Of a stretch of DNA of 64,000 bases, positions 3,419-27,670 are shown one piece after another. Below the pieces are notes generated by a model. That model did not search any database. It worked only from the letters and a program-made list of their open reading frames with translations, and had not been told where the DNA came from. Each line of letters opens with the position of its first letter. Within the stretch, counting starts at the first letter, position 1. Position numbers and translations under genes: made by a program. This stretch comes from Planctomycetaceae bacterium (GTDB lineage: Bacteria; Planctomycetota; Planctomycetia; Planctomycetales; Planctomycetaceae), in contig DASZIA010000650.1 of assembly GCA_035949535.1 (NCBI GenBank), positions 45,548-109,547 of the forward strand. Direction: 5' to 3'.

Positions 3419-5197
3419 ATGGCCGACCATTATGCTGACGTCGCGATTGTCGGCGCCGGCATCGCGGGCTCGATTGTCGCGTATCAACTTGGGAAGTGCG
3501 GCATCGATGTGCTTTTGATCGAATCGGGGCCCGCCGTCCTTCCGAGTCGCGAATCCGAGGTCGAACGCTATTACACCGCGGTCGATAAGTTTCCCGAAAC
3601 ACCCTACGCGGTGAACGTGAATGCGCCGAACGCGCGCGTGGAGCACTTGTTCAAGTCGGTCTGGCAGGACGTAAAAAAAACCTACTTGGATCAGAGCGAA
3701 TCGCCGCTGCCGTTTGGCAGCACCTATGAACGCCGCGCGGGCGGCACGGTGTGGCACTGGTTAGGGACCAGTCTTCGCCTGTTGCCCAACGATTTCCGAC
3801 TGAAAACCCAGTACGGCGTCGGCGACGATTGGCCGATTTCCTACGATGATCTTGGGCAGCCGCAAAGTGGGCGAGTGAAGTCCTACTACCGCCTGGCCGA
3901 GGAAGAAATCGGGGTGGCCGCGGACGTTAAAGAGCAGCAGTACCTGGGACTGACATTCGAGGACGGCTACCAATATCCGAACCCCGCCATCTCGGGGACG
4001 TGCACAGACGAATTCTTTCGGAAGCCTCTGGCAGATGGAAAAACGACGTTTGACGGATGCAAGGTCGTTGTCTCGCCCACGCCGGCGGGCCGCCAATCGG
4101 TTCCGACGCTGACGCGTCGCGCCTGCGCGGGAAACACGAGCTGCGTTCCGATCTGCCCGATCCAGGCCAAGTACGACCCGACATTGACGTTGCACAAGGC
4201 GTTCAGCACGGGCCATGTGCATGCTTTGTTTCAAGCCGTCGCGTCCGAGGTCATCCTCGACGCGCACCATCAAAAGGTCATGGGGATCAAGGTCATTCGA
4301 TACAGCGATGCGGCCGTCGTGTCGCGCTGCGGCGAAGACACGGTCCGCGCCAAGATTTACGTCCTTGCGGGCAACGCGATCGAAACGCCGAAACTGATGC
4401 TGATGTCGAATCTACCGAACCCGAACATCGGCAAGTATTTGATGGATCATCCGTACTACCTGCGCTGGGGCCTGACTCCAAACCCGACTTGGCCCTATCG
4501 AGGACCATTGTCAACGTCCGGCATTGAGAGCCTGCGGGACGGCAAGTTTCGCGAGAAGCGCGCCGCATTCCGCGTCGAGTTGGGAAATGAGGGCTGGAAC
4601 CTGACGATCAACGATCCTCAAACTACGGCTCTCGATCTGATCGATGGCACGGATGACAGTCACACCAACCGCGATCGACTCAAATTCCACGGCCGGCAGT
4701 TGATGGAAGAACTCAACAAGCGATTTAGATCTCAATGTCGCATCGGGTTTTTGATCGAGCAGACGGCGGACAGGAACAACGCGGTGACCTTGTCCGATCA
4801 GTCGGATGGCCTGGGTCTCCCTCGCCCGAAAATCACCTATTCATTCTCGGACTACACGATGCGCGGCTTCTTGGCCGCCAGACAGTTCACCGACCAGCTC
4901 TTCAAACTGCTCAAGATCGAGTGCAAGAGCCAACCGCGTGGCCTCGCCGGCGCCTTCCGTTTCGACGCGGAGGATTTCGAGTACCTTGGGGCCGGGCACG
5001 TCATCGGCACCTACCGCATGGGAACCACGCGGGACAACTCCGTTGTCGACAAGTTCCAGCGCTGTTGGGAGCACGAGAATCTGTATCTGGTTGGCAGCGG
5101 CGTCTTCCCCACCAGCGGGACGGCCAACCCGACGTTGACGCTTGCCGCCCTTTCGTTCTGGGCCGCCGACACCATCGCCAAGAAGCTGCACAAATAA
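3419..5197 (+). CDS. GMC-family FAD oxidoreductase
   Basis: ORF track gives 3212..5197. Moving the start to ATG 3419 gives MADHYADVAIVGAGIAGSIVAYQLGKCGIDVLLIESG (GxGxxG). The C-terminal GAGHVIGTYRMG and NLYLVGSGVFPTSGTANPTLTLAAL blocks are typical of GMC oxidoreductases. Confidence 0.85.
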   Translation: MADHYADVAIVGAGIAGSIVAYQLGKCGIDVLLIESGPAVLPSRESEVERYYTAVDKFPETPYAVNVNAPNARVEHLFKSVWQDVKKTYLDQSESPLPFGSTYERRAGGTVWHWLGTSLRLLPNDFRLKTQYGVGDDWPISYDDLGQPQSGRVKSYYRLAEEEIGVAADVKEQQYLGLTFEDGYQYPNPAISGTCTDEFFRKPLADGKTTFDGCKVVVSPTPAGRQSVPTLTRRACAGNTSCVPICPIQAKYDPTLTLHKAFSTGHVHALFQAVASEVILDAHHQKVMGIKVIRYSDAAVVSRCGEDTVRAKIYVLAGNAIETPKLMLMSNLPNPNIGKYLMDHPYYLRWGLTPNPTWPYRGPLSTSGIESLRDGKFREKRAAFRVELGNEGWNLTINDPQTTALDLIDGTDDSHTNRDRLKFHGRQLMEELNKRFRSQCRIGFLIEQTADRNNAVTLSDQSDGLGLPRPKITYSFSDYTMRGFLAARQFTDQLFKLLKIECKSQPRGLAGAFRFDAEDFEYLGAGHVIGTYRMGTTRDNSVVDKFQRCWEHENLYLVGSGVFPTSGTANPTLTLAALSFWAADTIAKKLHK

Positions 5198-5201
5198 GCC
5201 G

Positions 5202-6203
5202 ATGGCCGAATCACCACGCTGCGACATAAACGACATTCCGTTGCCGAACACCCGCCGGTTGTCGAATCTCGACGGTTATCTCAACGGACCGGTCAGGGAC
5301 CTGATCGCGGAGCCGACCGTCCCGATCCCGCCCGAGGTGGCCGAGCGGCATCGGATCTACGCCCTGTTGCTAATGGCGATCGCGCGCTGGTACTGGAACC
5401 CGAACAAACGCGGCCGGCTCGGCGTCTACCCCTTGAACCCGTCGCTGGCGGCGGGCGACATCGGCAACTACCTCGACAAGGACTATTTGGGGCACAACAT
5501 CGGCGGCCTGGCCGTCGATGCCGATGGGCGCATCATCGACTTCGATTTCAATCACAACGAGATCTTCGACAGTTCGGCCGAACACGCCGAGGCCCGCCTG
5601 GTGCGGCGGGTGTTTTCACTCGTGCAGGTGGAAGACACCTGGAACGTAAACGCCGCGCGGATTCCGCTCAGGCGGGGCAGCCTGATGCCTGACGTGACGA
5701 TCTACACGACGCTCGAGTCGTGCTCCCAGTGCTCGGGCGTGATGGCGCTTGCCGCGGTCAAACAGGTGGTCTACCTGCAGCGCGACCCCGGCATGTTTCA
5801 CATCGGCAATATTCTTTGGCGACTCACCGAGAAAACGGACCTGCAGGCGCCGCTGCCGATTTCGGGAGATCGAATCGGCCTGCCCTTTTTTCGGATGCTG
5901 AACGACCGGTACGACGCGTTCGCCGACCAGCAGAAATCGGGCAAGGGGTCGCCGTTCTTTTGTCCCCCGCATTCTCATGAGGAATATTCACCGTCCGTCA
6001 CGTCGTTTTTGTGCACCAACAGCGCCTATAGCGTCTTCAAAGACGGCGAGAGTGCCTTCGATGCCTTGAGTAAGCAACCGCTGAAATACGCCGGCTACAA
6101 ACCCTCTCCGACGAACTTGACGAACGCCAAATGCCTAGAAGAGGCCGTTCGGTTCCGCTGCTACGCGACGAGCAAAGGGCGGCGCGGAACGCCGCACAAA
6201 TAG
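5202..6203 (+). CDS. cytidine/deoxycytidylate-deaminase-fold protein
   Basis: ORF track gives 5142..6203. I moved the start to ATG 5202, 4 nt after the GMC stop. It contains HAEARLV, then about 40 residues, then TTLESCSQCSGVMALAAVKQVVYLQRDPG. This matches the H-A-E and CxxC zinc signature of the CDA/TadA fold. About 140 residues of unknown N-terminal region precede it. Confidence 0.65.
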   Translation: MAESPRCDINDIPLPNTRRLSNLDGYLNGPVRDLIAEPTVPIPPEVAERHRIYALLLMAIARWYWNPNKRGRLGVYPLNPSLAAGDIGNYLDKDYLGHNIGGLAVDADGRIIDFDFNHNEIFDSSAEHAEARLVRRVFSLVQVEDTWNVNAARIPLRRGSLMPDVTIYTTLESCSQCSGVMALAAVKQVVYLQRDPGMFHIGNILWRLTEKTDLQAPLPISGDRIGLPFFRMLNDRYDAFADQQKSGKGSPFFCPPHSHEEYSPSVTSFLCTNSAYSVFKDGESAFDALSKQPLKYAGYKPSPTNLTNAKCLEEAVRFRCYATSKGRRGTPHK

Positions 6204-7862: not shown

Positions 7863-8909
7863 ATGCGCATCGTGACCGCAAACGTCCTAGTGACAGTTTT
7901 TCTAGTGGCGGCGAGCGGGCACGGTTTCGCCGCGGACGGTCCGACCGATGCCGCGCCCACAGTTCTGCAAGGGCCCAAGGCGCTGCCGCAATATAAGCAC
8001 GTCGTCCTGGTCGTCGAAGAAAACAAAGACTACGACCAGATCGTCGGCAACCCCTCGGCCGATTACATCAACAAGGTCTTGCTGGCCGAAGGAGCCTCCT
8101 TCACCAAGATGTATTCTGAAGAGCACTGCAGCCAGGGCAACTACTTCTGGTTGTTCTGCGGCAGCAACCTCGACGTCGGTTTCACCGACGTCATCCCGAC
8201 GAAGGCAAATAACCCGGCCTATCCGTTTCAAGCGAGCAATCTGGGTGCGCAGCTCTTCGCCCACCACCGCGACTTCAAGGGCTATTCGGAGACTTTGCCG
8301 GCGATCGGTTCCTGTATCGAATTTGTGGACGACGGGTGCGAACACATTTATGGACGCAAACACGTCCCCTGGGTCAGTTTTGGCAACCTGCCGAAGGGGA
8401 CGACGGTCAACAAATCCTGCAACCTGCGTTGGAAAGACTTTCCCAGCGACTTCAATGAGCTGCCGGACGTTGCGTTCGTGATCCCTAATCTGCGAAGCGA
8501 CATGCACAACGGTTCACTCCAAGGAAGCATCCGGTGCGGCGACACCTGGCTGAGGGACAATCTCGATTCGTATTACCAGTGGGCCAAAAAGAACGAAAGC
8601 CTGCTGATCGTGACGTTCGACGAAAGCGACGTCAAAGAAATGGGTTGCGGGGGTTTGACGGATCCGGCCGCCAAACCGGACACGCAACTCGGCAAGGACC
8701 AGCAGAACCGGGTCCTCACGATCTTCGCCGGCGCCCACATCAAGCACGCCGAGTACGCCGAGGGCAACGGCATCACGCACGTCAACATCTTGCGCACACT
8801 CGAGGCGATATATGGCTTGCCGAAGTCCGGTGCCCAGCAAGTGAACGCGGCCCGCGCCGGCATTTCAGACGATTACGTGATAACCGACGTGTTCGGGCGC
8901 ACGCCATGA
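7863..8909 (+). CDS. secreted phosphoesterase / acid-phosphatase-like protein
   Basis: ORF track gives 7758..8909. I moved the start to ATG 7863 (GGAGAGG 9 nt upstream), giving the signal peptide MRIVTANVLVTVFLVAASGHGFAADG. Motifs seen: KHVVLVVEENKDYDQIVG, PNLRSDMHNGS, LLIVTFDESD. Confidence 0.75.
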   Translation: MRIVTANVLVTVFLVAASGHGFAADGPTDAAPTVLQGPKALPQYKHVVLVVEENKDYDQIVGNPSADYINKVLLAEGASFTKMYSEEHCSQGNYFWLFCGSNLDVGFTDVIPTKANNPAYPFQASNLGAQLFAHHRDFKGYSETLPAIGSCIEFVDDGCEHIYGRKHVPWVSFGNLPKGTTVNKSCNLRWKDFPSDFNELPDVAFVIPNLRSDMHNGSLQGSIRCGDTWLRDNLDSYYQWAKKNESLLIVTFDESDVKEMGCGGLTDPAAKPDTQLGKDQQNRVLTIFAGAHIKHAEYAEGNGITHVNILRTLEAIYGLPKSGAQQVNAARAGISDDYVITDVFGRTP

Positions 8910-9105
8910 ACCGACCGTGCCTGCGGCTTGCAAACATGAAGGACCGGATGCGTGTTAGTTAGCCGCCCTAGGGACATCGCTCAGTTCCTCCAAACTGGTG
9001 AGCCGCTCGCGTGCTGCGTCGACGCTCCTCCGAAATGGATGAAGTGCAGCTCGGACCGCACGATGGCTTCCGGGCCGGCGTCGCCGGGGCGCCAAGGAGT
9101 ACCAA

Positions 9106-9906
9106 ATGGCGATCGTTCTTTCGGTCGGTGGCTTTCTGGTGTGCCTCATCGCAATCGCGACCACGCGCGCCCTGTCGCGGCAGAAGCTTGAGATCAAGTC
9201 GTCTGATGCAATCACCGCGGTTATGCCGGTCCTTGTCTGGCTAGTTGCTTCGGGCAGGATCAATCTAAAGGTTGGGGCAGACGGATTCCAGGTGACTCAG
9301 GCGATTAAGAGTGCGTACAGCGGTTCGGCCCCACAAACAGTCGGCGTTGCCGATCTCCCGGTTGACAGGGTTGTTGGTGCGTCGCGTCAAATCAAGTCGC
9401 CGCTCTCAGAGGTTAAGCCTCGTGTCGACTTGCTTGTTAAGAATCGCGTCCAAGTCCTTGTGTTTACGATGGGAACTGGCCACCAAGGAGAGGTAGTTGA
9501 TTATTATTTTCGGACGTTGATTCCCCACCCGTCCTTTCGGTTCTTTCTCATCAACTCGCAGGACGGCAAATACTTCGGCGTTATTCCGGCGCAAAGCGTG
9601 CAGGATTTGCTGAGTCAAGAGGGGGCAAACGATTCCCGCAAGGGAGCCCTTGCCGCACAGTTCGCCGGTTTTCTAAATGACTCCGACAAGGCGGGGATCC
9701 GTGCGATCCCAGGATTCAGCGACGCCTCGGTCGATGCACATGCGGACAAATTGGCCGCGTTACGAGAGCTCAATAAGGAAAATGTGGCATTCTTGCCAGT
9801 TATCAAGAACGGGCAGTTCGATAATGGCATTGTCGATCGACAGCGCCTGGTCACAAGCGTGCTTGTCGACATTTATGATGGTCTGGCGGACGTGGGAACC
9901 AAGTAA
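9106..9906 (+). CDS. membrane protein with C-terminal CBS-like region
   Basis: AAGGAG lies upstream of the ATG. There are two N-terminal hydrophobic helices (IVLSVGGFLVCLIAIATT, AVMPVLVWLVASG). The C-terminal FLPVIKNGQFDNGIVDRQRLVTSVL recalls CBS-domain strands. The stretch looks more AT-rich than its flanks by eye. Confidence 0.6.
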   Translation: MAIVLSVGGFLVCLIAIATTRALSRQKLEIKSSDAITAVMPVLVWLVASGRINLKVGADGFQVTQAIKSAYSGSAPQTVGVADLPVDRVVGASRQIKSPLSEVKPRVDLLVKNRVQVLVFTMGTGHQGEVVDYYFRTLIPHPSFRFFLINSQDGKYFGVIPAQSVQDLLSQEGANDSRKGALAAQFAGFLNDSDKAGIRAIPGFSDASVDAHADKLAALRELNKENVAFLPVIKNGQFDNGIVDRQRLVTSVLVDIYDGLADVGTK

Positions 9907-10140
9907 GGCGGAGGATTCGCCCGCGGGTACGCAGTCCATGTCGGCAGGCCAACTTTGTTCCGCGATATGCAGGCTAGACATAAGTGAAGAATGGGCAAGA
10001 AAAAGGGCGCCAAAGGTGCGAAGCAAACGTCCAGGCCGGGGAAAAGACCACGACGCGCGGGCGGCAATCGGCGCCGACAAGCAAGAGCCACCCGACCCAT
10101 TGAGCGTCGAACCACATCGTCCATCGAAGGAGTTTCATCC

Positions 10141-13119
10141 ATGAGTCCGCAGGCCCTTACACTCCCGTTCTGGCAGGTGCAATTCGATGAGACCGGTCAA
10201 CTGGTCGATCCTCCGGCCGTGGACACGGTTCTCCAGGCGCTGCGAAGTGAGGCACTGACGCATCTATTCATCTTCTCCCACGGGTGGAATAACTCCCCGG
10301 CCGATGCCAGAAGCCTCTATGACCGGTTCTTCGGCGCCATGTCCGCCCTGCTTCCCGATCGCCAGGCGGGCGTCAACAGTGGAACGCTTGGGATCTATTG
10401 GCCCTCGATGCGCTGGATTGACGAGGAACTACCGAGCGCGGATGAAGGTGGTCCGGCTGCTGTCTCTACTGCGTTGTCACCGAGCGCTTCAAGTGCGAGT
10501 GCCCAGGTTCTTGCGCTCAAGGCGGTCTATTCGACGCCGCAGCAACGCGCTGCGATCGACGCGTTGGCGGACATGCTGCAGTCGCGACCACGCGATCCGC
10601 TGGCACTCCAGCAGTTCCAGCACTATATGCAGCTGTTGACAACGACCCCGGAATCAGGTTTTCACCCGGAAGATAACGGCGAGCGCAACCTCTTAAGCGG
10701 GTCTCCGCAGGAGGTCTTTCAGCGATTCGCCCTGGTGACGCCGCGTTCCGTTGACCAAGGCGGGGTCGCTGGAATTGGGGACCTTGTTGACCGGATTTGG
10801 GACGGAGCGAAGGAAGCGCTCCGGCAGGCTACTTATTGGGAAATGAAGAAGCGTGCAGGCGTGGTCGGCCAGCAAGGTCTGGGGCTTCTAATTGCCCGCA
10901 TTCACCAGGCGCTGCCCTCGATTCGCGTTCATTTGCTTGGTCATAGTTTCGGGGCGCGCCTCGTTTCCTATTCGCTGGCTGGGTTGCCGGCCGCACTGAC
11001 GGGTTCAGCGTCACCCATCAAGTCGGTCACTTTGCTCCAGGGAGCATTCTCGCACTTTGCCTTTGCGAGCAGTCTGCCGTTTGATCCGTCGAATGGCGGC
11101 GGATTAGCCGGGATGCAGGCGCGCGTGGACGGCCCGATCGGCGTCACGCATACCCCGTGGGACACGGCTCTTGGAACCTACTACCCTTTGGCGTCGATGG
11201 CCGCTAACGATGCGACATCTGCGTTTGAGGACCTTCTGTTTCGTTGGAACGCGATGGGGCATGACGGAGCCCAGTCGGTCAATGCCAACGCAATCGGCGT
11301 CGGTCCAGTGGGAACAGATTACGCAGCATCAACCCGCGGCAGCCAGTTCACGAATTTTGATGCTAACGCTGTCATCCGTTTGGGCGGCCCGCCGTCCGGA
11401 GCGCATAGCGACATCGTTCACCCCGAAATCGCCTGGATCGTTCTTTCCGCTTCGCATGTCGCGGATCAGTCAGCCAATGTCAGCGGATCTGCCACTCAGG
11501 CAGCGGCTGGTTCCCCGCAAGGAGGCGCGGCGAGCCTCGCTCCCGTTGTTGAGACCACGGCGGAGCCACAACGGCAGGAAACATCTAGGTCATCATTTGA
11601 ACCAACGGAACCGCCGCTGATCCGCAACACAACAGTGTCCCTCGCTTTTAATATTCCGCAGGAGGATACCAGGCGGGCAAAAGCGGGCCTAAGGGCTGAT
11701 AACACGTCACCCTGCTCCGTGATGATTGAGCTGAACTTGCACCATCGCTTAGGGCTCGAGGGCGCCAAGGATCGCTTCCGCGCGCTATGGAAGACCCTGC
11801 CGCCGGCTGTGTCGCAAAGAGGATGGGTCGAGATTTCAGATACCTACATACGTTGTGATCTCAGCGTGGACGATGTCCGGATGCTTGCACTGCGCGACGA
11901 GCAAGAAGCCAAAGGAGATGAGAGCGCACACAGCATTTATCAAATCTGGCCTGACTTCCCCGTCCATCCACAGATTGATCAATCCGTCTCAACCATTAAG
12001 GGGGACGCGGCCCGGCGCTCGTACGATGCGACGGGAGCCAGCATCACGTGGGCCGTCATCGACACGGGGATCGACGCCTCCCATCCGCACTTTGCGACCT
12101 ATGACACGCTGGGAGGCGATGTTGCCCAGCTTCATTGCGACTTTACGATGCCAGACACGCCGGTCCCACCACGCATCATCTCCGCGCTAAGGGACACCTA
12201 CGGGCATGGTTCACACGTCTCTGGAATCATCGCCGGCGGACTCGTTGGAGGGGTTCCTGGCAAAACGCCGCCGCCCTATTTTGTCGCGGAATCAGTGCAA
12301 ACCCCGGGTGGACTTTCCAGTGTACAAGAGCGGCGAGGAGTCGATCCGTTACGTCTCACAGGGGTTGCCCCCCGGTGCAAGCTGGTCAGTTTGCGAATCC
12401 AGGGGGACGACGGACAGAATCTTTCATCAAACGTGATTCGTGCGCTGCAATACGTGCGAAAGGATCTCAACGGAAATGGCAAGCTCCTCAGGGTCCACGG
12501 CGTGAATCTGAGCCTCGGGTACGAGTTTGATGCACATTGGTTCGCCTGCGGGCAGAGTCCGATTTGCGTCGAAGTGAATCGACTCGTTCGCTCGGGCGTT
12601 GTCGTGGTTGTCGCGGCTGGAAATACCGGATATGGGACGCTCACCGCAGAACAGCGCCCTGGGACGAGGACCGGGATGGCGTTGACGATCAATGATCCCG
12701 GAAACGCCGATTTGGCCATCACGGTGGGATCAACACACCGTGACAGACCGCACACCTATGGCATCTCCTACTTTTCGTCAAAAGGCCCTACCGGCGACGG
12801 GCGGATAAAACCGGATCTCGTTGCGCCCGGAGAACGCATTACTTCGTGTGCCGCCGGCCGCAATCTGGACAAAATCGGGCCACTCATGGCGGGTAAGCCG
12901 CCGAATACGGCGTGCTACGTGGATGACAGCGGCACGAGCATGGCCGCACCTCACGTGTCGGGAGCGATTGCAGCCTTCCTTTCCATTCGCCGGGAATTCA
13001 TCGGCCAGCCCGAGAGAGTTAAAGAAATCTGCCTCGCGAACGCCACGCCTTTGGGACGTGAGCGGTACTTCGAAGGAAGTGGTCTCTTCGATCTGATGCG
13101 CATGATTCAGTCCGTTTAA
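10141..13119 (+). CDS. fusion protein: N-terminal alpha/beta hydrolase (DUF900-like) and C-terminal S8 subtilisin-family peptidase
   Basis: ORF track gives 9991..13119. I prefer ATG 10141, preceded by GAAGGAG at 10126-10132. The N-terminal half has LFIFSHGWNNSPADA..GIYWPS and HLLGHSFGARLV (GxSxG). The C-terminal half has the S8 triad motifs WAVIDTGIDASHPHF, HGSHVSGIIAG and SGTSMAAPHVSGAIAAF. Confidence 0.8.
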   Translation: MSPQALTLPFWQVQFDETGQLVDPPAVDTVLQALRSEALTHLFIFSHGWNNSPADARSLYDRFFGAMSALLPDRQAGVNSGTLGIYWPSMRWIDEELPSADEGGPAAVSTALSPSASSASAQVLALKAVYSTPQQRAAIDALADMLQSRPRDPLALQQFQHYMQLLTTTPESGFHPEDNGERNLLSGSPQEVFQRFALVTPRSVDQGGVAGIGDLVDRIWDGAKEALRQATYWEMKKRAGVVGQQGLGLLIARIHQALPSIRVHLLGHSFGARLVSYSLAGLPAALTGSASPIKSVTLLQGAFSHFAFASSLPFDPSNGGGLAGMQARVDGPIGVTHTPWDTALGTYYPLASMAANDATSAFEDLLFRWNAMGHDGAQSVNANAIGVGPVGTDYAASTRGSQFTNFDANAVIRLGGPPSGAHSDIVHPEIAWIVLSASHVADQSANVSGSATQAAAGSPQGGAASLAPVVETTAEPQRQETSRSSFEPTEPPLIRNTTVSLAFNIPQEDTRRAKAGLRADNTSPCSVMIELNLHHRLGLEGAKDRFRALWKTLPPAVSQRGWVEISDTYIRCDLSVDDVRMLALRDEQEAKGDESAHSIYQIWPDFPVHPQIDQSVSTIKGDAARRSYDATGASITWAVIDTGIDASHPHFATYDTLGGDVAQLHCDFTMPDTPVPPRIISALRDTYGHGSHVSGIIAGGLVGGVPGKTPPPYFVAESVQTPGGLSSVQERRGVDPLRLTGVAPRCKLVSLRIQGDDGQNLSSNVIRALQYVRKDLNGNGKLLRVHGVNLSLGYEFDAHWFACGQSPICVEVNRLVRSGVVVVVAAGNTGYGTLTAEQRPGTRTGMALTINDPGNADLAITVGSTHRDRPHTYGISYFSSKGPTGDGRIKPDLVAPGERITSCAAGRNLDKIGPLMAGKPPNTACYVDDSGTSMAAPHVSGAIAAFLSIRREFIGQPERVKEICLANATPLGRERYFEGSGLFDLMRMIQSV

Positions 13120-13254
13120 GAGTTGCTAGACCGCGCGGCACCTGATTCTGACACGGGATATACACGGCTCCACGGCCAAGTGTGTCCAACTGGCTTGTTG
13201 CGAACGCGGATCGAAAACGACACTCGATCTCGGCGTGGAAGGAGTGATTGAGCG

Positions 13255-14373
13255 ATGGCACGCTCCTCTCGACTCCGCGTAATGATTTCGAGCAGGTGCA
13301 ACGACCTTTTCCCTGCGAAAGGCGGCACCACTACTCTCACAGACATCCGCAAGAAGCTTAAGCAGCAAGTCGAGTTGGTCAGTCCGTTTGACAAGCAGCT
13401 ATTTGAGGTGTGGATCAACGAAGAAACCCCGCCAACAGGAGGAAGCTGGAGCAGCTGGGACGTTTGTCTCAACGCTGTTAAGGACTGCGACATTCTGCTT
13501 GCCCTGTCAAACGGCAATGCCGGCTGGGCCAAGAGCGCTGGAGATATCGGCATTTGCCACGCCGAATTAATGACCGGCCTGTCCCAGGCCCCCGGGAAGG
13601 TGTGGCTTATATCGCTGGGCAACGTCCCGATCGATTCTTCCGAGCAAGGCGAGCGCAATAGAAGATTCCAGGAATTCGTTGCCCTTCAGAACCTCTTTCG
13701 CGGTGCCGAGGTTAAGACGATTGCGGAATTAGAGCAGCGCGTCAAAGAGGCGTTGAATGAAGCTCTGTTGACGCTTGTTCAGCGAGGCGTGCGCGAGTCA
13801 ACGAAAGGGCGCTACTACAGCGGCCAGGCTCTGGATTGGACTCGCCTCAACTTCGCCAATCGGCAGTGTGAGATGCTGAAAGTCCTTCGCGAAGCCGTGC
13901 TACAGCATCCCAGCTCTGCTGAGGACAGTGGCAACGTGTTCATAAGCCTTGGCAGCGCTGAGGTACTCTTCGTGCTGCACGCGATACCTGCAGCATTCGG
14001 GGTTCCCGCCGCAAGAGAGCTGGTAGGACAGCCCTTCCTCCAAGACCACACGCTTCACGGCCTGTTCGTCCGCCGGCGCGTGGGCCCAATGCATGTGATC
14101 GCCTGCCATCGGTCAGCTACTGAGGCACAGGCGACAAAGCTCCTCGGGTTTCCTGATGCAACGGTCGTAAACGCTCCGTTCGGGATTTATGTGGCAGACA
14201 ACGTCCAAAAGGTCCAGTTTGCGTTTGTTTGCAATTGCCGCGACGATGCCACAACTCGCCACGGCGTGCAGCGATTCTTCGATTGGCTCGAGCAGACCGG
14301 CGAAGGGGCTCTTCTGGCGTCGCGCGCGGCGTCGCGAGCCAGGATTGTTAAAGCGATAGCCAAGGAGACCTGA
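13255..14373 (+). CDS. DUF4062-like (nucleoside deoxyribosyltransferase/TIR-like fold) N-terminal domain protein
   Basis: GGAAGGAG lies upstream. The N-terminal LRVMISSRCNDLF..IRKKLKQQVE..FEVWINE..CLNAVKDCDILLALSNGNAGW follows the DUF4062 pattern as I remember it (FISS..D.., E, C.D..v.i.g..yG). The remaining 260 aa or so are unassigned. Confidence 0.55.
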   Translation: MARSSRLRVMISSRCNDLFPAKGGTTTLTDIRKKLKQQVELVSPFDKQLFEVWINEETPPTGGSWSSWDVCLNAVKDCDILLALSNGNAGWAKSAGDIGICHAELMTGLSQAPGKVWLISLGNVPIDSSEQGERNRRFQEFVALQNLFRGAEVKTIAELEQRVKEALNEALLTLVQRGVRESTKGRYYSGQALDWTRLNFANRQCEMLKVLREAVLQHPSSAEDSGNVFISLGSAEVLFVLHAIPAAFGVPAARELVGQPFLQDHTLHGLFVRRRVGPMHVIACHRSATEAQATKLLGFPDATVVNAPFGIYVADNVQKVQFAFVCNCRDDATTRHGVQRFFDWLEQTGEGALLASRAASRARIVKAIAKET

Positions 14374-14590
14374 GTTTCCTCAGGGTTACAACGACGGGGA
14401 AGCGACAGAAGCCCGCGTCAACGACCGGCAACGGTATTACCACCCGGAGAGGCCCCGTCGTCGCTTTTAGGGGGTCTAGGAGCAGCGAATCCGCTCTCAG
14501 CCTGTTTCCAGCCTATTCCGTCGTTTGCCCTTCCACGGGCCATTTCCTGGGCACTTGGCATCAGGAGCAGTGGGTAGGCCACGACCGCCG

Positions 14591-14619
14591 TATGGCACAA
14601 GATGAGAACGTGTGCCATA
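14591..14619. promoter_or_regulatory. perfect 9-bp inverted repeat TATGGCACA-N11-TGTGCCATA upstream of the antitoxin gene
   Basis: Read directly. It lies about 70 nt upstream of the 14692 start and is immediately followed by TTGACA at 14631-14636. It is a candidate operator, or a hairpin. Confidence 0.35.
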
Positions 14620-14691
14620 TCTTTATCTTGTTGACACAGGATGGGAACTGTGGCAACGTTGTCGAGAAAGCATAAGTGGTGACGGTATGGT

Positions 14692-14934
14692 ATGACGGAT
14701 GTTCGTGTACGCGATCTTGACGATGACATCGTGAGCCTTTTGAAAGAACAGGCGCGAGGACGTCAGAGAACGCTGGAGAACTACATACGTGAAGTGCTCA
14801 CGGACCTGGCGACGCGGCCCAGGTGGGAACTCGCTGAGCGTGCCGCTCGATTGCGGGAGTCGATCAAGGCGGAGTCCGGCATTTTGACCGATTCGGCGCC
14901 CTTTGTCCGCGAGGAGCGGGATCGGCGCGGATGA
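14692..14934 (+). CDS. ribbon-helix-helix antitoxin (FitA/VapB-like)
   Basis: MTDVRVRDLDDDIVSLLKEQARGRQRTLENYIREVLTD is the classic Arc/MetJ-type antitoxin N-terminus. Its stop overlaps the start of the PIN ORF (ATGA). Confidence 0.75.
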   Translation: MTDVRVRDLDDDIVSLLKEQARGRQRTLENYIREVLTDLATRPRWELAERAARLRESIKAESGILTDSAPFVREERDRRG

Positions 14935-15191
14935 TCGTGGTCGACGCCAGCGTCGCCGTTAAGTGGTTTATCCCCGAACCTGGCGAAGAGGCGGCGGTGA
15001 AACTTCTCGACGGCACAAACGGGTTGATTTCGCCCGCGCTTATCCGGCTCGAGGTAACCGGGGCGATCATCCGGCGCTATCGCGAAGGACATTTGACGGA
15101 GAAAAAAGCCCGCGAGGAATTTGCGAGGCAAAAACGGCCTCATCTCAGGAGTTCATTCAGGAAGTTCTTTAAAGATGTCGGGGACCCTTAA
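14931..15191 (+). pseudogene. truncated PIN-domain (VapC-like) toxin
   Basis: MIVVDASVAVKWFIPEPGEEAAVKLL..LISPALIRLEVTGAIIRRYREGHLTEKKAREEF is a normal PIN N-terminal half. The ORF then ends at 86 aa with unrelated sequence. The C-terminal acidic residues and the T.D motif are missing. Confidence 0.6.
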
Positions 15192-15254
15192 GGAGTGCAT
15201 CTCAGCAGCTGCTTGCCCACTCTACGGAAGTCGGGCGGCCGGTCGGCTGAGCCA

Positions 15255-16163
15255 TCATTCCTCGGGCTCCCAGTCATCGGCTTTAACCCACCTCCCCCCG
15301 TCCTTAATTTCGATCTCCATAATCGGATGAATTTCCCAGATCGTTCCGCGCGACTTTCCCACGGCTTCCGGATGCCATTGATCGAGCATCAGCCAGCCGC
15401 TAATCCGCACGCGGTTTTCGGACTTCTTGATGGATTTCATCAGATCATAGGTCCACTTGGGATGCTGTGCCCGAATGCGGGGAGTGACCTCCACGACGAT
15501 GGAGTCGCTCTTGTCATCCTCGCTTGACGTCACCAAGCTGAGATGGAAGTCGACCATATCGTCGGCGTCCTCGCCACAGTTGCAGGATTCTGGCCCTTCC
15601 GCTTTCGTGTAGGCGATAAACCCTTCCACAGCAATTGGAACGCCCTCGTAGCGTGACACCGCTTCTCGGGTTTCCAGCGGCCAAGCGGCTCGCTTACGCG
15701 GCAATTCGGCTGGATAGTCGAGATTCCGCACCGCCCCAAACTTGACAGGAATCCACTCGCTCCATTTATCCACGCGATTCTTCAGCCGATTCAATTCACC
15801 GTCGCCGCCGCTTCCCTCGGCTCCGCAGTTTTTGAATGTCGTTGACCGCGGTGTCGGTTTCTGCGGCATGTTGGGCAAACCGGTCGATTCGTCGAGTGTC
15901 CAGGTTCTCGTCGCTGCTCGCGCCGCTTGAGGAGCCAGATTGACCTTGAATTCTCCCGCCCTTGGGGGCGCGATTTCATTGAGCCGCCTTTCGATTCGGT
16001 CCAATCGATCAAGAATTCGATCGATCTTCTCATCGGTCGATACGGCCTTGTGAGGCGACGACGGGGGCGGATCGCCTCCATGCGTGACAATCGCAAACGG
16101 TCCGACGGTGACCGCTAACACGAGAACGGCGACGGTGGCAGCCCAGAAGCGGCTGTATTTCAT
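15255..16163 (-). CDS. secreted hypothetical protein with conserved His-motif C-terminal domain (D.HL.L / D..H / WEIHP); paralog of 26678..27583
   Basis: The signal anchor is MKYSRFWAATVAVLVLAVTVGPFA. The C-terminal DFHLSLV..VEVTP..ISGWLMLDQWH..TIWEIHPIMEIE aligns with DYHLILG..AEVSG..VTGSLFFDIDH..TAWEIHPVTAIE of 26678..27583. Confidence 0.7.
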   Translation of the reverse strand: MKYSRFWAATVAVLVLAVTVGPFAIVTHGGDPPPSSPHKAVSTDEKIDRILDRLDRIERRLNEIAPPRAGEFKVNLAPQAARAATRTWTLDESTGLPNMPQKPTPRSTTFKNCGAEGSGGDGELNRLKNRVDKWSEWIPVKFGAVRNLDYPAELPRKRAAWPLETREAVSRYEGVPIAVEGFIAYTKAEGPESCNCGEDADDMVDFHLSLVTSSEDDKSDSIVVEVTPRIRAQHPKWTYDLMKSIKKSENRVRISGWLMLDQWHPEAVGKSRGTIWEIHPIMEIEIKDGGRWVKADDWEPEE

Positions 16164-16303
16164 GCTACATCCTTTACGAAAGGCGATTGTCTTGTATCCG
16201 AACGCAATGGCTTTCGCATTGCGATTGTCGGCGCAGTTGAAATCGAAGCGTCGGCCTCAAACTCGAATCTCATACGCATGAACTCTCAGCCGTTCCCACG
16301 AAT

Positions 16304-17809
16304 CTAGAAGTTATCCTGCGCGTACTTGACTGCGGCGGCCGCGTTGATCAAACCCCAACCAGTGGCTTTGTCGAAGCCCGGCACAGCCGGCTCGTTAAAC
16401 CGTTGGGGAAAGCTATGGCCGACCACCACGTCCGTTGCGGTTTTGGAGAGGGCCTCGATGACCTTTGCCGGCTCCAAGCCAGGCTTGGCGCTCAAGATGA
16501 GTCCCGACGCTCCCGCCACTTGGGGCGCAGCCGCCGACGTTCCTGAGAAGAGCGCCCACCCGTCGGTGGCGGTCGTGCCGTCCCCAGCTTCACCGCTGTC
16601 GAACGCACTTTCCTCTTGGTCCAGCTGGCAGCCTGGTTGCACGGGCAACATCAGGTACTGCGCTCGGGGCTGCATTCCTACGAGTCCGCAGACTGTTGGT
16701 ACGACGACACCGCCAAACCATGGGCTGGCGTATCCGCTAGCGTAGTCCGACGCTTGGAGATGCCCGACAGCGTCTACGAAGGCTCCGCCAGCGGCAAGCA
16801 CACCGGTAATTTGGGGTTCGATCGACAGCTGACCGTTGCCGGCCGAGAAGATCACAAGGATGCCTTTGTCGATGGCATCCTGAACCTCAAGAGCAAACGA
16901 AAGATCGCTTGGGTCGGGCTCGCTGCCGGCCGGAATTGGATAGGGCAGCTCGTAGTCGCCGCCCCAAGAATTCGTCATGATCTGTGGTGCTAAGGCTTTG
17001 CCCTTCAAAAATGCGGCTACCACGCCGACGAACTTCCCCGCATTGTCCGTGCCACGAACCGGCTGCAAGGTGGCACCTGGCGCCATTGCGAAAATGTTCG
17101 CAGATTCACCGGTGCCGTGCCCAATTGGATCCTTGCTCGGATCGGTGCCTGGGATCGCCACAAGTGGCGTGTTGACGTTATAGCCATTGGCCGTGAAATA
17201 GGGATGGCGATACCAACCGGAATCTGGCATCACGATGGTGACACCGTCACCACGGATTCCTTGTTGATGGGCGTGAGTCGCGTTCAGGAGCGTGGCCACG
17301 TCATTTGGAAGTTGGAGGTGGTATTTCGGAGAACTGAGCGGGATCGGGGACGGAAAGATCGCGTGATGCTGGCGTGGGCGCTCCAGTACGACGCCATCAA
17401 TTTTCAGCGACCGAGACTGGACCATCCCAACGCCGAACGCTTCCGGTTGACCGTGGCCAACGATGTCCAAGCAGGTAATGTATTCTCGGACCCCTTCCGT
17501 GGTGCTCATTAACGTTTCCATCGGCTTAACGGTGCCGCCCGTCAGCGATTCATACGCGCCCGATGCTCCTCGTACCGACAAACCCAAGTCACTCTCTGCA
17601 AGAATCTCGAATCCCGACTTTTCCAAATGAGTCCTGACCGAGTCAATATCACTCCGCTTGGCATGATAGGCCTTGGCAGTGCGGTGCAACTTCTTGGTAT
17701 TCTTGGCGCCGAACACCGACTCCTTTCCCTGCACGGAAACGTACCCGACAATCTTATCGGGAACTGGATTATCCGACTTCATGAGCGCGGGCAATCCAAA
17801 GTTTGCCAT
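16304..17809 (-). CDS. S8 subtilisin-family serine peptidase with N-terminal pro-domain
   Basis: Triad motifs seen: VTIVMPDSGWY, HGTGESANIFAMAPGA, NSWGG, SGTSAAAPQVAGASGLIL. The N-terminal 100 aa or so (DIDSVRTHLEKSGFEILAESDLGLSVRGASGAYESLTGG) look like an activation or inhibitor pro-domain. Confidence 0.85.
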   Translation of the reverse strand: MANFGLPALMKSDNPVPDKIVGYVSVQGKESVFGAKNTKKLHRTAKAYHAKRSDIDSVRTHLEKSGFEILAESDLGLSVRGASGAYESLTGGTVKPMETLMSTTEGVREYITCLDIVGHGQPEAFGVGMVQSRSLKIDGVVLERPRQHHAIFPSPIPLSSPKYHLQLPNDVATLLNATHAHQQGIRGDGVTIVMPDSGWYRHPYFTANGYNVNTPLVAIPGTDPSKDPIGHGTGESANIFAMAPGATLQPVRGTDNAGKFVGVVAAFLKGKALAPQIMTNSWGGDYELPYPIPAGSEPDPSDLSFALEVQDAIDKGILVIFSAGNGQLSIEPQITGVLAAGGAFVDAVGHLQASDYASGYASPWFGGVVVPTVCGLVGMQPRAQYLMLPVQPGCQLDQEESAFDSGEAGDGTTATDGWALFSGTSAAAPQVAGASGLILSAKPGLEPAKVIEALSKTATDVVVGHSFPQRFNEPAVPGFDKATGWGLINAAAAVKYAQDNF

Positions 17810-19649: not shown

Positions 19650-19958
19650 ATGCTAAACCTCGAACACGGCATCGACTCGATGACGAATTTCAAACGTCAA
19701 ACCGCCGAATACCTGGAGCGGCTGCACAAGACCGGCGAGCCGGTCGTCCTCACAGTGAACGGCAAGGCTCAGGTGGTCGTGCAGGACGCAGCCGCCTATC
19801 AGATGCTGCTCGATGCCGCGGCGAAGGCGGAACGCGAGGAAACGGTGGCGGCGATTCGCGAGGGCCTGGCCGACGCCAAGGCCGGCCGCACCAAGCCAGC
19901 GAGGGCGGCGCTCAAAGCGCTCGCCAAGAAATACGGCATCGCCACGCCGGACAAGTAG
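19650..19958 (+). CDS. Phd/YefM-family antitoxin
   Basis: MTNFKRQTAEYLERLHKTGEPVVLTVNGKAQVVVQDAAAYQMLLD is the canonical Phd/YefM core. The stop lies 1 nt before the toxin start. Confidence 0.85.
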   Translation: MLNLEHGIDSMTNFKRQTAEYLERLHKTGEPVVLTVNGKAQVVVQDAAAYQMLLDAAAKAEREETVAAIREGLADAKAGRTKPARAALKALAKKYGIATPDK

Positions 19959-19959
19959 C

Positions 19960-20340
19960 GTGAAATATCGTGTGCGACTCACCGCCAAAGCCGAGGCGGA
20001 TGTGGACCGGGTTCTCCGCTGGTTTCACGAGGAGCGCGCGACGGCCGCCGGTGATCGTTGGTTCTCGCGGCTGATGGCCAAGATCGATACGCTCGAGGCG
20101 CACCCGGCACGCTGCGCTGTCGCGGCCGAATCCGAAGACCTAGGAGTCGAAATCCGCGAATTGCTGGTTGGAAAGCGCCACGGTGTCTATCGAATTCTGT
20201 TTCAGATCGAAGGGCGGACGGTTCAAATACTGCGAGTCTGGCACGGTGCGCGGGATCGCGTCTCACCGGAGGACCTCTGGACGTCAACGCACCGGCGTTT
20301 TCGAGGCATTGACCAATTGCCGCCGTTAAGACTGGGCTGA
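19960..20340 (+). CDS. ParE/RelE-family toxin
   Basis: This is the frame of ORF 19813..20340, with the start at GTG 19960. VKYRVRLTAKAEADVDRVLRWF..HPARCAVAAES..IRELLVGKRHGVYRILFQIEGRTVQILRVWHGARD matches the ParE/RelE pattern. Confidence 0.8.
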   Translation: MKYRVRLTAKAEADVDRVLRWFHEERATAAGDRWFSRLMAKIDTLEAHPARCAVAAESEDLGVEIRELLVGKRHGVYRILFQIEGRTVQILRVWHGARDRVSPEDLWTSTHRRFRGIDQLPPLRLG

Positions 20341-20894: not shown

Positions 20895-21425
20895 TCATTT
20901 ACGCCGAAAGGAGTTCTTCAAAGAGCCGGGTCCCGCAACGGCACGATTCGCTCGCATAAGCCGCTTGCACGCATCCAGTACGGCCCACGGAATCTCCTGC
21001 AGCGCGTCGGCAAGCTGAACGAAGTCAATGAAGGCATCTGGTTTCAACAACGCCCATATGCGGTCATCAAGTTGCTTCTGTGCTTCAGCGCCGCTCTCAT
21101 CCACGTCGAAACCATCCATCCAAAAGATCGCATCGTTCCAGAGAATAAAGTGACTTTGGCAGCCGGTGTCTCTCCAAACGGAGGGAAAGAGAGTAAAACC
21201 CTTGGGAGACTGATAAATTCTCCACGCCTTGGCAGTTCGGGGATCGAGGTTAAGCGTGATGACTTCTCCGCAGCCGTCTGGGCAGCGCATTACTGCGGAC
21301 CGCAATGTGCCACGCTTAACGATCGCGAGATCGCCAGGTTGTGTAACGAGCCCAATGGCGTCGCTATGAGAAGGAACAATCCCTTTCATTCGAGAACGAC
21401 GGGGACGGTTTTCGTAAGACGTCAT
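20895..21425 (-). CDS. DUF6527-like Cys/His protein (last gene of the Ubl-conjugation operon)
   Basis: MRCPDGCGEVITLNLDP..FTLFPSVWRDTGCQSHFILWNDAIFW fits my memory of the DUF6527 pattern (CP.GCG..i.lnl .. PS.. C.SHF.i..G.i.W). Its start overlaps the upstream stop as ATGA (21422-21425). Confidence 0.7.
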   Translation of the reverse strand: MTSYENRPRRSRMKGIVPSHSDAIGLVTQPGDLAIVKRGTLRSAVMRCPDGCGEVITLNLDPRTAKAWRIYQSPKGFTLFPSVWRDTGCQSHFILWNDAIFWMDGFDVDESGAEAQKQLDDRIWALLKPDAFIDFVQLADALQEIPWAVLDACKRLMRANRAVAGPGSLKNSFRRK

Positions 21426-22972
21426 GCAGCTTCCTCATGCGAAGCAATTGCGACCAACAAGCGGTAGGCGGACCAATAAGCGTAGCTACGGACTACTGCG
21501 TCGGGGGCGTCGATCTGTATCTTTGCTTCATCCTCAGGAAACATGGCCATTCGCAGCATGTACGCGGCCAGAACATAGCCGTACGCCTTTTCGTCGAGCT
21601 CGATATAATATGCCATTAATCGCAGCTGGCGGCAGGCACTCCACATCCAAGTGTGCAGACACGGCTGTTCCTGGAGCGGCGGCACGATAGAGAACTCTCC
21701 GGCCTTGAACGTGAATAAAGCGTCGATATGCCGTCGCCATTCCTTAAATCGACTTGAGTCAAGGTATCGACCGTCATCCTTCTCATTCCAGAGAGTATTT
21801 GCTTCGAGGTCGAAGCAAATCGCAATCTCGAGGGACGCAAGGTCTGCAACCAATGGACCGATGGTTGACTTGTAAAAGTCAATCATCACGGCCTCGCCAT
21901 TTTTGACACGTACGTTTTGGGTGTTGAGATCGCCGTGCACCGGTCCACGACGATACAAGTGCTTGCTCGACTCATCGAGCATACGCGTCAGCTCGGGTCC
22001 TGACAGTTTGGCCCCAAAGGGCTTGGCGGCTCTTATATAGGGCGCCTTGATTTGTGCGGGGTCCAAAATGGTTGGGAGGATGTCCGCAAGAGCGATACGT
22101 TCATCGCGGCGAAACGCCTGCTGGCGCCACCCTCTAAGAGCATCGTCAAACAATGAATGAATGATTGCTCGCGCGCCGTAGGGCTGCAAAAGGTCTGATA
22201 GAGACACGGAATCATCGACAAAGTCCCCCACCAAGATACCATCGGTCGAACCCAGCAGGCAGCGCTTAAGCTCACAGTTCGGTCTTTGGCTGAATGGGAT
22301 ATATCGGGTTACGAATCTCTCGTAAGCGTCGTACTCTTGCAGGATACGTTTGCTTCGATCAAGTTTCGCAAAATATGGAAGCGGATACGGCGCTGCCTCG
22401 CCCTCAGGAAACTCAGCATAGACCACAAGTACGCGCGCGCCTGACAATCCTTTAGTGAGCGGCTTAATCGTGATTGCCTTACAGTCGCTGAATGCCCGCT
22501 TCAGCAAAAAAAGATCGCTTGCATTCGTCGGCACCTCGCCCTTGATTTCCAGATCGGGGTTAAGTGGCGGGCCGGCAGGATGCCGTGCCGCCAGTTCAGC
22601 AAGCTCGTATCCCGGCTTTCTAAAAGAGAATTGTTTGATTGGCCTCGGAAAGTCGACGAATCTTGTGGTGACTTCAGGAAAATCAAGAATATGACTTTGG
22701 AGCAGTTTGTCTTCACCCTTCTCATTCGCATGGAGAACAACAAGCAAGCCATGGTCGGCTGCCTTTGACGCCCAGCTTTTAACGAGACCGATTGACCGAC
22801 CCTTGTGCTTACTATCGAAGCTGAATACGACGCATCGTGAAACCGACAAATCTCGATCGGAGAGTGGAGGGTTGGTTACGGTGAGGGTCAGTCGCCGGCG
22901 TGTGAACTCGGTGAGGATGGTCTTCGACGGCGCGCGGCCCAGCCAAAGGACCTGTGTGCGTTCGATGGTCAT
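21422..22972 (-). CDS. protein-kinase-like / aminoglycoside-phosphotransferase-fold protein with N-terminal alpha/beta domain
   Basis: ORF track gives 21422..23002. I prefer ATG 22972, which makes an ATGA overlap with the upstream stop. Kinase-fold landmarks seen: LTKGLSGARVLVVY (Gly loop), PYFAKLD (Lys), ILQEYDAYERF (helix C Glu), HGDLNTQNVRV (catalytic loop), VMIDFYKS (DFG-equivalent). Confidence 0.8.
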   Translation of the reverse strand: MTIERTQVLWLGRAPSKTILTEFTRRRLTLTVTNPPLSDRDLSVSRCVVFSFDSKHKGRSIGLVKSWASKAADHGLLVVLHANEKGEDKLLQSHILDFPEVTTRFVDFPRPIKQFSFRKPGYELAELAARHPAGPPLNPDLEIKGEVPTNASDLFLLKRAFSDCKAITIKPLTKGLSGARVLVVYAEFPEGEAAPYPLPYFAKLDRSKRILQEYDAYERFVTRYIPFSQRPNCELKRCLLGSTDGILVGDFVDDSVSLSDLLQPYGARAIIHSLFDDALRGWRQQAFRRDERIALADILPTILDPAQIKAPYIRAAKPFGAKLSGPELTRMLDESSKHLYRRGPVHGDLNTQNVRVKNGEAVMIDFYKSTIGPLVADLASLEIAICFDLEANTLWNEKDDGRYLDSSRFKEWRRHIDALFTFKAGEFSIVPPLQEQPCLHTWMWSACRQLRLMAYYIELDEKAYGYVLAAYMLRMAMFPEDEAKIQIDAPDAVVRSYAYWSAYRLLVAIASHEEAA

Positions 22973-27583: not shown

Positions 27584-27670
27584 GTCTCGTTGCAAGGGCT
27601 TCGAGAAAGGGAAGCGCGCGCACTTAACGCGCCTCTGGGTCCAGCGGTAGCCTTCGGAAAGCTCAGTTCA

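Follow-up and report, generated by a model that had tools for sequence, protein, structure and literature searches.

Bacterial alpha/beta-hydrolases that are linked to proteases have been described as zymogens, in which two cuts remove an inhibitory segment and cell death follows (Evans et al. 2025, PMC12642450), and metallo-beta-lactamase (MBL) nucleases follow the same logic of protease activation (Tuck et al. 2025, PMC12799240). The DUF4062 domain is a TIR-like NADase that acts in abortive infection, and the single-gene systems Swarozyc (KpSwz), Evangelion (Eva01) and Vulcan, which consist of DUF4062 and an auxiliary domain (AUX; portal-binding in KpSwz), defend by trigger-activated depletion of NAD+ (preprints of 2026: 10.64898/2026.05.01.722283, 10.64898/2026.06.25.731849, 10.64898/2026.09.04.749371). 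These are among the closest described systems to two of three neighbouring genes, A, B and C (Table 1), in a stretch of 64,000 nucleotides from a Planctomycetaceae bacterium (GenBank assembly GCA_035949535.1, contig DASZIA010000650.1, positions 45,548 to 109,547 of the forward strand; hereafter the window). A preliminary description of this sequence proposed that A, B and C form one sensor-effector defence or abortive-infection module. That proposal fails because homologs of the three genes do not co-occur, and the arrangement given a better than even chance is that of a defence-type island in which independent units happen to be neighbours, where gene B encodes a protease-gated hydrolase zymogen, gene C a stand-alone DUF4062 NADase, and gene A an unrelated neighbour.

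The fused S8 peptidase and hydrolase of gene B

Gene B is a rare fused, order-swapped variant of a widespread gene pair encoding an S8 peptidase and an alpha/beta-hydrolase. A pattern-based scan of one genome per species confirmed at least 589 loci of this cassette, and the apparent rarity of the B family in a word-indexed protein search (16 relatives) was therefore dismissed as a filter artefact. Open reading frames (ORFs) were called on 80 of the loci, with calls obtained in 74. In 47 of the 74 genomes a gene of its own encodes each half of B and the two genes adjoin, with the S8 gene (about 500-620 residues) preceding the hydrolase gene (about 440-480 residues) at a median gap of 15 nucleotides; split genes in the order hydrolase then S8 were found in none of the 74 loci. 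Two of the 74 are fused like the window, and a few further fusions are known from the metagenomic relatives P0002-P0011. Only one half was called in the remaining loci, for reasons that include contig ends and a crude ORF caller, and about 8 loci match the S8 half only (tblastn). That the halves are fused in the window and split elsewhere argues strongly for joint action of the two activities, and gene B is in this sense a "Rosetta-stone" fusion that links an S8 protease in function to an alpha/beta-hydrolase without annotation: the split pair is found on plasmids of Rhizobium johnstonii 3841 (pRL11), Rhodococcus jostii RHA1 (pRHL1) and Burkholderia, where it is annotated "S8 family peptidase" and "hypothetical protein".

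One polypeptide contains both an alpha/beta-hydrolase and a complete S8 triad, as first described, and both sets of residues are invariant or nearly so in homologs. The invariant residues of the hydrolase are H47 and G48 of an SHGW oxyanion motif, S269 of the GHSFG motif, D341 and H422. This half had been called a DUF900-like lipase/esterase on account of GHSFG; the motif is indeed invariant, but the Pfam matches to DUF900 and Abhydrolase_1 are both below threshold (E about 0.02). A profile of the hydrolase compared with the sequences of the PDB matched lipase nucleophile-elbow segments only, plus a segment of dodecin that is probably spurious. In the S8 half (PF00082, E = 1.3e-37 in Pfam), D641, H689 and S933 are invariant among homologs, and N828 is invariant in ten full-length fused homologs. 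The AlphaFold2 (AF2) model is confident in the hydrolase core and poor in the C-terminal third of the S8 moiety; S8 matches dominate a Foldseek search with the whole model, leaving the hydrolase fold unclassified.

The linker between the halves, previously put at about 200 residues, is much shorter: its disordered part comprises only about 50 residues (444-496) and gives way to a folded prodomain. This I9-like prodomain (residues about 500-604) was recognised because the protein from about residue 500 onwards aligns to unautoprocessed pro-subtilisins, its best Foldseek matches (470-500 aligned columns). It has a predicted beta-alpha-beta-beta-alpha-beta fold (AF2, predicted local distance difference test (pLDDT) score 77-93), carries a conserved ELNL motif, and corresponds to the N-terminus of the unfused S8 partners. 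With such a prodomain in place, the S8 moiety of B looks like a zymogen.

The preliminary description took B for a cytoplasmic protein of the conflict-effector kind with two predicted hydrolytic activities, and this is borne out by the intact triads and by the N-termini: neither start of B gives a hydrophobic N-terminus, the upstream extension is hydrophilic, no signal peptide was found from either start or in about 100 homologs, and neither partner has one, so that a secreted subtilase was rejected. The longer start of B (1042 residues) may be the real one, judging from sequence, because Lys/Arg-rich tails recur in homologs and the extension is more conserved than gene A. Extensions of this composition also precede the fused homologs L001 and L006 in frame, many unfused S8 partners start with a Lys/Arg-rich tail, and positions 9991-10140 share about 97% DNA identity, more than gene A does, with locus L015 of a near-identical relative. 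An ORF in an alternative frame (9677-10144, +2 frame) ends over the ATG of B as ATGA, and its 83-residue equivalent in L015 was called as a gene by the Joint Genome Institute (JGI); substitutions between the window and L015 across these very conserved 150 nucleotides favour neither frame. Actinobacterial S8 partners (L052, L058, L060, L067, L070, L075, L082, L085, L088 and L091) have an extra N-terminus of about 100 residues in place of the Lys/Arg-rich tail; by eye it resembles a winged helix of the Mrr_N type, and Pfam gave no match.

Two GG-x-A motifs in the hydrolase half are candidate sites for the protease. Of 43 homologs, 32 carry motif 1, 36 carry motif 2 and 29 carry both, and the density of GG-x-A is 68-fold higher at the two motif positions than elsewhere in the proteins. 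Each motif lies in a predicted disordered loop (AF2, pLDDT below 50 at residues 93-117 and 201-214, respectively), and together they flank a helical insert (residues 119-199, within a segment of about 100 residues) that separates the oxyanion-strand region from the nucleophile strand. Plasmid pNSMS101 of Nostoc sp. MS1 (L102, 6962-15263) encodes a full-length homolog of the hydrolase (31% identity) that has neither GG-x-A motif. Downstream of it, where an S8 gene might be expected, come genes for a C25 cysteine peptidase and two CHAT proteins. The hydrolase family therefore swaps protease partners, and from these sequences the GG-x-A motifs may track the class of the protease. The two CHAT-domain proteins are very large, and the locus resembles another protease-effector system, of greater size, that makes use of this hydrolase family.

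Gene B most likely encodes a protease-gated hydrolase zymogen. The I9-like prodomain would hold the S8 moiety inactive; once active, the protease would cut the hydrolase at the two GG-x-A loops around the helical insert; and the lipase- or esterase-type activity so freed would damage the cell, making B a protease-gated death effector. In common with the modules of Evans et al., B has a cytoplasmic alpha/beta-hydrolase of unknown substrate in strict linkage with a protease, two conserved motifs around an insert that separates the oxyanion-strand region from the nucleophile strand, and a hydrolase family with partners of different protease classes (S8, or C25/CHAT in Nostoc). B differs from them in that its protease is an S8 pro-subtilisin, where the modules of Evans et al. 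and Tuck et al. have caspase-like or trypsin-like proteases, and in that protease and hydrolase are one polypeptide in the window. The candidate sites are GG-x-A, whereas the Evans modules are cut between R and G; the insert is about 100 residues long versus about 44, and the hydrolase about 450 residues versus about 300. Unlike the published modules, B has no sensor domain fused to its protease.

Many cassette loci lie among metabolic or transport genes (for example, between ABC-transporter and thiMED genes on Rhizobium pRL11), the hydrolase has no PADLOC match and the S8 domain generic ones only, and no matches to the cassette were found in phage genomes. These observations would suit a pair, and hence a gene B, that acts outside conflict, as a proteolysis/esterase unit of the cytoplasm serving stress responses, development or nutrient turnover, and is placed beside defence genes here by chance; this is a serious alternative, though considered unlikely in view of the distribution and architecture of the family. 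The cassette has a patchy distribution over at least eight phyla (among them Actinomycetota, Acidobacteriota, Chloroflexota, Pseudomonadota, Bacteroidota, Verrucomicrobiota and Cyanobacteriota), its copies share 45-60% identity and have unrelated flanks, it is found on plasmids and beside insertion sequence (IS) elements, and a minority of loci recur beside SIR2, STAND and helicase genes; moreover, the hydrolase family pairs also with C25/CHAT peptidases, and the zymogen-like architecture matches that of published death effectors. No conserved third partner emerged from 65 adjacent same-strand genes, among which no Pfam family occurs more than twice; PADLOC matched a few helicases, one IetA-like ATPase and one SIR2-type protein in this set.

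Several observations weigh against B as a protease-gated death effector, besides the metabolic settings just mentioned. Defence-model matches concern only a minority of cassette neighbours; no sensor domain was recognised in B or in the unfused S8 partners, which consist of tail, prodomain and catalytic domain only. The AF2 model of B is of mediocre quality (mean pLDDT 61), cleavage at the GG-x-A motifs is inferred, and the correlation of motifs with protease class depends on one cysteine-peptidase-associated homolog.

A wider interpretation of the family is offered tentatively, well short of an even chance: the S8/hydrolase pair and its fused form may be an unnamed, self-contained abortive-infection or suicide module of at least 0.3% of bacterial species, in which the pro-subtilisin would be both sensor and switch, excision of the insert of about 100 residues at the two GG-x-A sites would turn on a membrane- or ester-directed hydrolase, and the fused form would be a zymogen cascade in a single polypeptide. 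Gene B points to specific candidate cleavage motifs; if its proposed role is confirmed, a widespread module would be named, with sites open to direct test, and B would extend the logic of protease-gated effectors to subtilisin-type proteases that lack a fused sensor. No paper naming a system of S8 peptidase plus alpha/beta-hydrolase turned up in the literature. The view that no named system has the composition of this locus thus holds in part for B, since protease-hydrolase zymogens were described in 2025, and not for C, since DUF4062 defence proteins have been published. Of the two genes, B gives the more useful result, as the S8/hydrolase pair is widespread but unnamed and uncharacterised.

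Another S8 peptidase with a role in defence is IetS, which together with the ATPase IetA reportedly makes up the IetAS system of Gao and colleagues (2020). B resembles IetAS in having an S8 catalytic domain in a defence-type context, and PADLOC models of IetS match part of B (E = 2.5e-10). However, the match covers about 160 residues of the catalytic core, the partner of the B protease is a hydrolase, and no IetA ATPase is encoded in the locus; membership in IetAS was rejected for these reasons. The NCBIfam models for mycosin and IteS match the S8 catalytic core of B only and fall far below the family cut-offs (29 bits for IteS, against a cut-off of 900). The PADLOC "subtilase" match was also rejected as an indication of system membership; in B as in the unfused partners the alignment is confined to the catalytic core (profile positions 161-388 of 391), which makes it generic to S8 peptidases.

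The DUF4062 protein encoded by gene C

Gene C begins with a DUF4062-like domain, as the preliminary description had it. The Pfam match to PF13271 lies just over the threshold (24.8 bits, cut-off 24.7; E = 2.6e-5; residues 8-104), many homologs have PF13271 and are named "DUF4062 domain-containing protein" by NCBI, and the AF2 model (mean pLDDT 82) has Rossmann-type beta-alpha repeats at residues 7-144 and an auxiliary domain of mixed alpha/beta structure. The Foldseek matches are to TIR-STING (E = 1e-5), the TIR domain of TLR15, ThsB/ThsB1, and the CMP N-glycosidases MilB and BlsM, consistent with the predicted fold of TIR or nucleoside 2-deoxyribosyltransferase (NDT) type; a profile of the C family found no match among solved structures. 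The candidate catalytic residue E104 is kept in at least 90% of 25 diverse homologs, and its position is comparable to that of the Glu of characterised DUF4062 proteins (E87, E97, E98, E103, E108).

More than 1500 protein clusters match gene C over its full length at 60-70% identity, in Verrucomicrobia, Planctomycetes, Firmicutes and Proteobacteria, and this combination of spread and sequence identity suggests strong constraint together with horizontal spread. One homolog lies between hsdM and hsdS of a type I restriction-modification (R-M) operon (L012), one beside AbiEii and a CBASS-type SAVED/JAB/ThiF cluster (L013), and one in a segment resembling a conjugative element (L010). A tblastn search of 72,556 plasmids gave three matches (Comamonas, Aliarcobacter and Tardibacter) and none in Staphylococcus, the source of Eva01. 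In two loci a 331-residue ORF without a family match ends 4 nucleotides before the C homolog (L010, 5001-5996; L011, 796-1791), preceded in L010 by a DUF7380/EMARD_N protein. Some lineages of the C family may have a partner gene, which the window lacks.

By analogy with the characterised proteins, gene C fits a stand-alone DUF4062 (NIR, TIR-like) protein, predicted to be an ordinary member of a recently described family of NADase defence proteins, and the fold, the conserved E104 and the defence-type contexts of its homologs agree with the earlier assignment of C to conflict systems. Like Swarozyc, Evangelion and Vulcan, C is a single gene whose product starts with a DUF4062 TIR-like domain, continues with a helical stalk and ends in an auxiliary domain, and like other DUF4062 defence proteins it is mobile across phyla and has homologs in defence islands and inside R-M operons. 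Its auxiliary domain, in contrast, could not be assigned to a named lineage, and the HEAT repeats of Vulcan are absent. If the analogy is sound, the auxiliary domain would sense an infection cue, the TIR-like domains would then rearrange and hydrolyse NAD+ with Glu104 as the catalytic residue, and the loss of NAD+ would abort infection. The DUF4062/NIR family of NADase immune proteins, only newly recognised, would thereby gain a member of planctomycete type.

Gene A and the relationship among the three genes

Gene A belongs to a separate, unrelated membrane-protein family; it is a lineage-specific neighbour and probably not part of the B or C units. Its description as a membrane/CBS-like protein stands as regards the N-terminal hydrophobic helix, but CBS is matched only weakly (E = 0.1; 13.4 bits, cut-off 24) and no other Pfam family matched. 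A is not the orphan that a single match in a word-indexed search implied: exhaustive HMMER searching found 260 cluster representatives of about 250-280 residues. In three loci that were fetched (L096-L098), A homologs occur without B and without C, among methyltransferase, laccase-like and epimerase genes; A adjoins B in the window and L015 only. The possibility that A is the gasdermin of a gasdermin-protease pair was rejected, as neither PADLOC nor Pfam gave a gasdermin match, A has a transmembrane helix, and its family occurs without a protease.

The three genes are on one strand, separated by short gaps, and each has a strong Shine-Dalgarno site, as originally noted. L015 (B 93% and A 84% identical) retains the adjacency of A and B despite a different left flank, and a contig with a 96%-identical C homolog has a partial gene upstream at the same spacing as in the window. 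A near-identical relative keeps A paired with B and probably B with C, which speaks against treating the genes as independent units, and in this lineage they might still be co-regulated. On such grounds A, B and C could be one sensor-effector or abortive-infection system, with A as a membrane or ligand sensor, B as a protease/lipase effector and C as a TIR-like NADase. This is very improbable, because co-occurrence is limited to a single near-identical lineage. Searches with hidden Markov models (HMMs) of the A and C families found no homologs in the flanks of about 85 distinct B-family loci, except in the window and L015, four C-family loci all lack a B homolog, and the three A loci are likewise unlinked. 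In addition, the C family is an autonomous single-gene system in the literature and the relatives of A are in housekeeping contexts. The synteny in L015 says little, as far as sequence can tell, because L015 is near-identical to the window.

A looser association, in which B-type modules act with an adjacent NAD+-consuming enzyme (SIR2_2 in relatives, C here) and the protease licenses the NADase or the reverse, draws on the occurrence of SIR2_2-like genes near the S8/hydrolase unit in eight distinct loci, including L001, L003 and L006 of the fused clade. Genes for nSTAND1 NTPases lie near the cassette in four loci, among them L001, L019 and L059, and the neighbour of B in the window is itself an NADase-type protein. 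Yet SIR2 and DUF4062 neighbours are lacking in about 90% of cassette loci, the fused homologs L104, L016 and L069 have none (the upstream neighbour in L104 is neither SIR2-like nor DUF4062-like), gene C shows no sequence similarity to the SIR2-like neighbours of B homologs, and the C family occurs without any protease; both types of gene are common in defence islands, so that chance clustering is plausible. A functional partnership of B with a neighbouring NADase is accordingly regarded as quite improbable, and independent units remain the favoured arrangement.

Locus layout and surrounding genes

Table 1. Positions of genes A, B and C, their predicted parts and the adjoining toxin-antitoxin genes in the window
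Feature	Coordinates	Strand	Residues	Basis or remarks
Gene A	9106..9906	+	266	ORF; Shine-Dalgarno AAGGAG
Gene A, parts	9106..9906	+		N-terminal transmembrane helix; weakly CBS-like C-terminus
Gene B	10141..13119	+	992	ORF from Shine-Dalgarno start; site GAAGGAG
Gene B, possible long form	9991..13119	+	1042	Upstream in-frame ATG
B, in-frame Lys/Arg-rich extension before Shine-Dalgarno start	9991..10140	+		Hydrophilic
B, alpha/beta-hydrolase domain	10141..11460	+	1-440	Invariant residues; confident AF2 core
B, hydrolase key codons	S269, 10945-10947; D341, 11161; H422, 11404	+		
B, GG-x-A motif 1 (GGPA)	10447..10458	+	103-106	Predicted disordered loop; candidate protease site
B, GG-x-A motif 2 (GGVA)	10759..10770	+	207-210	Predicted disordered loop; candidate protease site
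B, disordered low-complexity linker	11470..11628	+	444-496	pLDDT 24-26; poorly conserved
B, subtilisin I9-like prodomain	11638..11952	+	about 500-604	AF2 fold; Foldseek
B, S8 catalytic domain	11992..13119	+		PF00082; PDB profile matches to subtilases; PADLOC "subtilase"
B, S8 catalytic residues	D641, 12061; H689, 12205; N828, 12622; S933, 12937	+		
Gene C	13255..14373	+	372	ORF; Shine-Dalgarno GGAAGGAG
C, parts		+	TIR-like domain 7-144; stalk helix 156-183; auxiliary domain 200-372	AF2
C, candidate catalytic Glu	13564-13566	+	E104	Motif GICHAEL
FitA-like ribbon-helix-helix (RHH) antitoxin, then short PIN-domain ORF	14692..15191	+		Pfam PF22513, PF01850; context only

Genes A, B and C lie between two PF04185 phosphoesterase genes (Pfam) and a FitA-like antitoxin/PIN pair, a placement that the preliminary description had given correctly. 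Base composition across the interval is unremarkable. A scan for promoters and terminators (8800-15300) gave counts not above those in shuffled sequence, and transcription units therefore could not be defined; no tRNA gene was found within the window. The PIN-domain ORF (14931-15191), which follows the antitoxin gene (14692-14934), encodes 86 residues that cover profile positions 1-57 of 120, and looks truncated or degenerate.

A ParE-domain ORF, a TCAD9/APH-like kinase and a JAB-ThiF (E1-like) protein are encoded within 10 kilobases downstream of C. With the PIN/FitA pair and C itself, these genes mark the region as a conflict-gene island, in accord with the conflict-gene-rich neighbourhood noted previously. 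The ParE toxin domain occupies the C-terminal 95 residues of a 175-residue ORF (19813-20340), the N-terminal extension of which (about 50 residues) could reflect an over-long ORF call or a fusion. The gene for the kinase, with its ternary-complex-associated domain 9 (TCAD9), adjoins that for the fused JAB-ThiF protein on the minus strand (21422-24309); the latter protein matches the "E1-E2" models of PADLOC for CBASS, and the two look like a separate ubiquitin-like or ternary conflict system.

Upstream, between a GMC oxidoreductase gene and the two phosphoesterase genes, is a gene (5142-6203) for a 353-residue protein with a MafB19-like/Bd3614-like deaminase domain of the toxin type; a MafB19-like deaminase is encoded also by one same-strand neighbour of the S8/hydrolase cassette elsewhere. 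A link between GMC oxidoreductases and B was considered, since P0002 is called as a GMC protein fused to a B homolog and a GMC gene lies upstream in the window, and was dropped because P0002 and the GMC protein of the window are not orthologous (24% identity, in the FAD motif only). Downstream of the PIN-domain ORF, the minus strand (15255-17809) encodes a second, divergent S8 peptidase (501 residues, PF00082 with E = 1.4e-16), upstream of a 302-residue protein whose N-terminus is hydrophobic and which matches no family. A planctomycete host is suggested by a DUF1559 (SBP_bac_10) protein with an N-terminal methylation motif (27590-28774), a member of a family that is hugely expanded in Planctomycetes.

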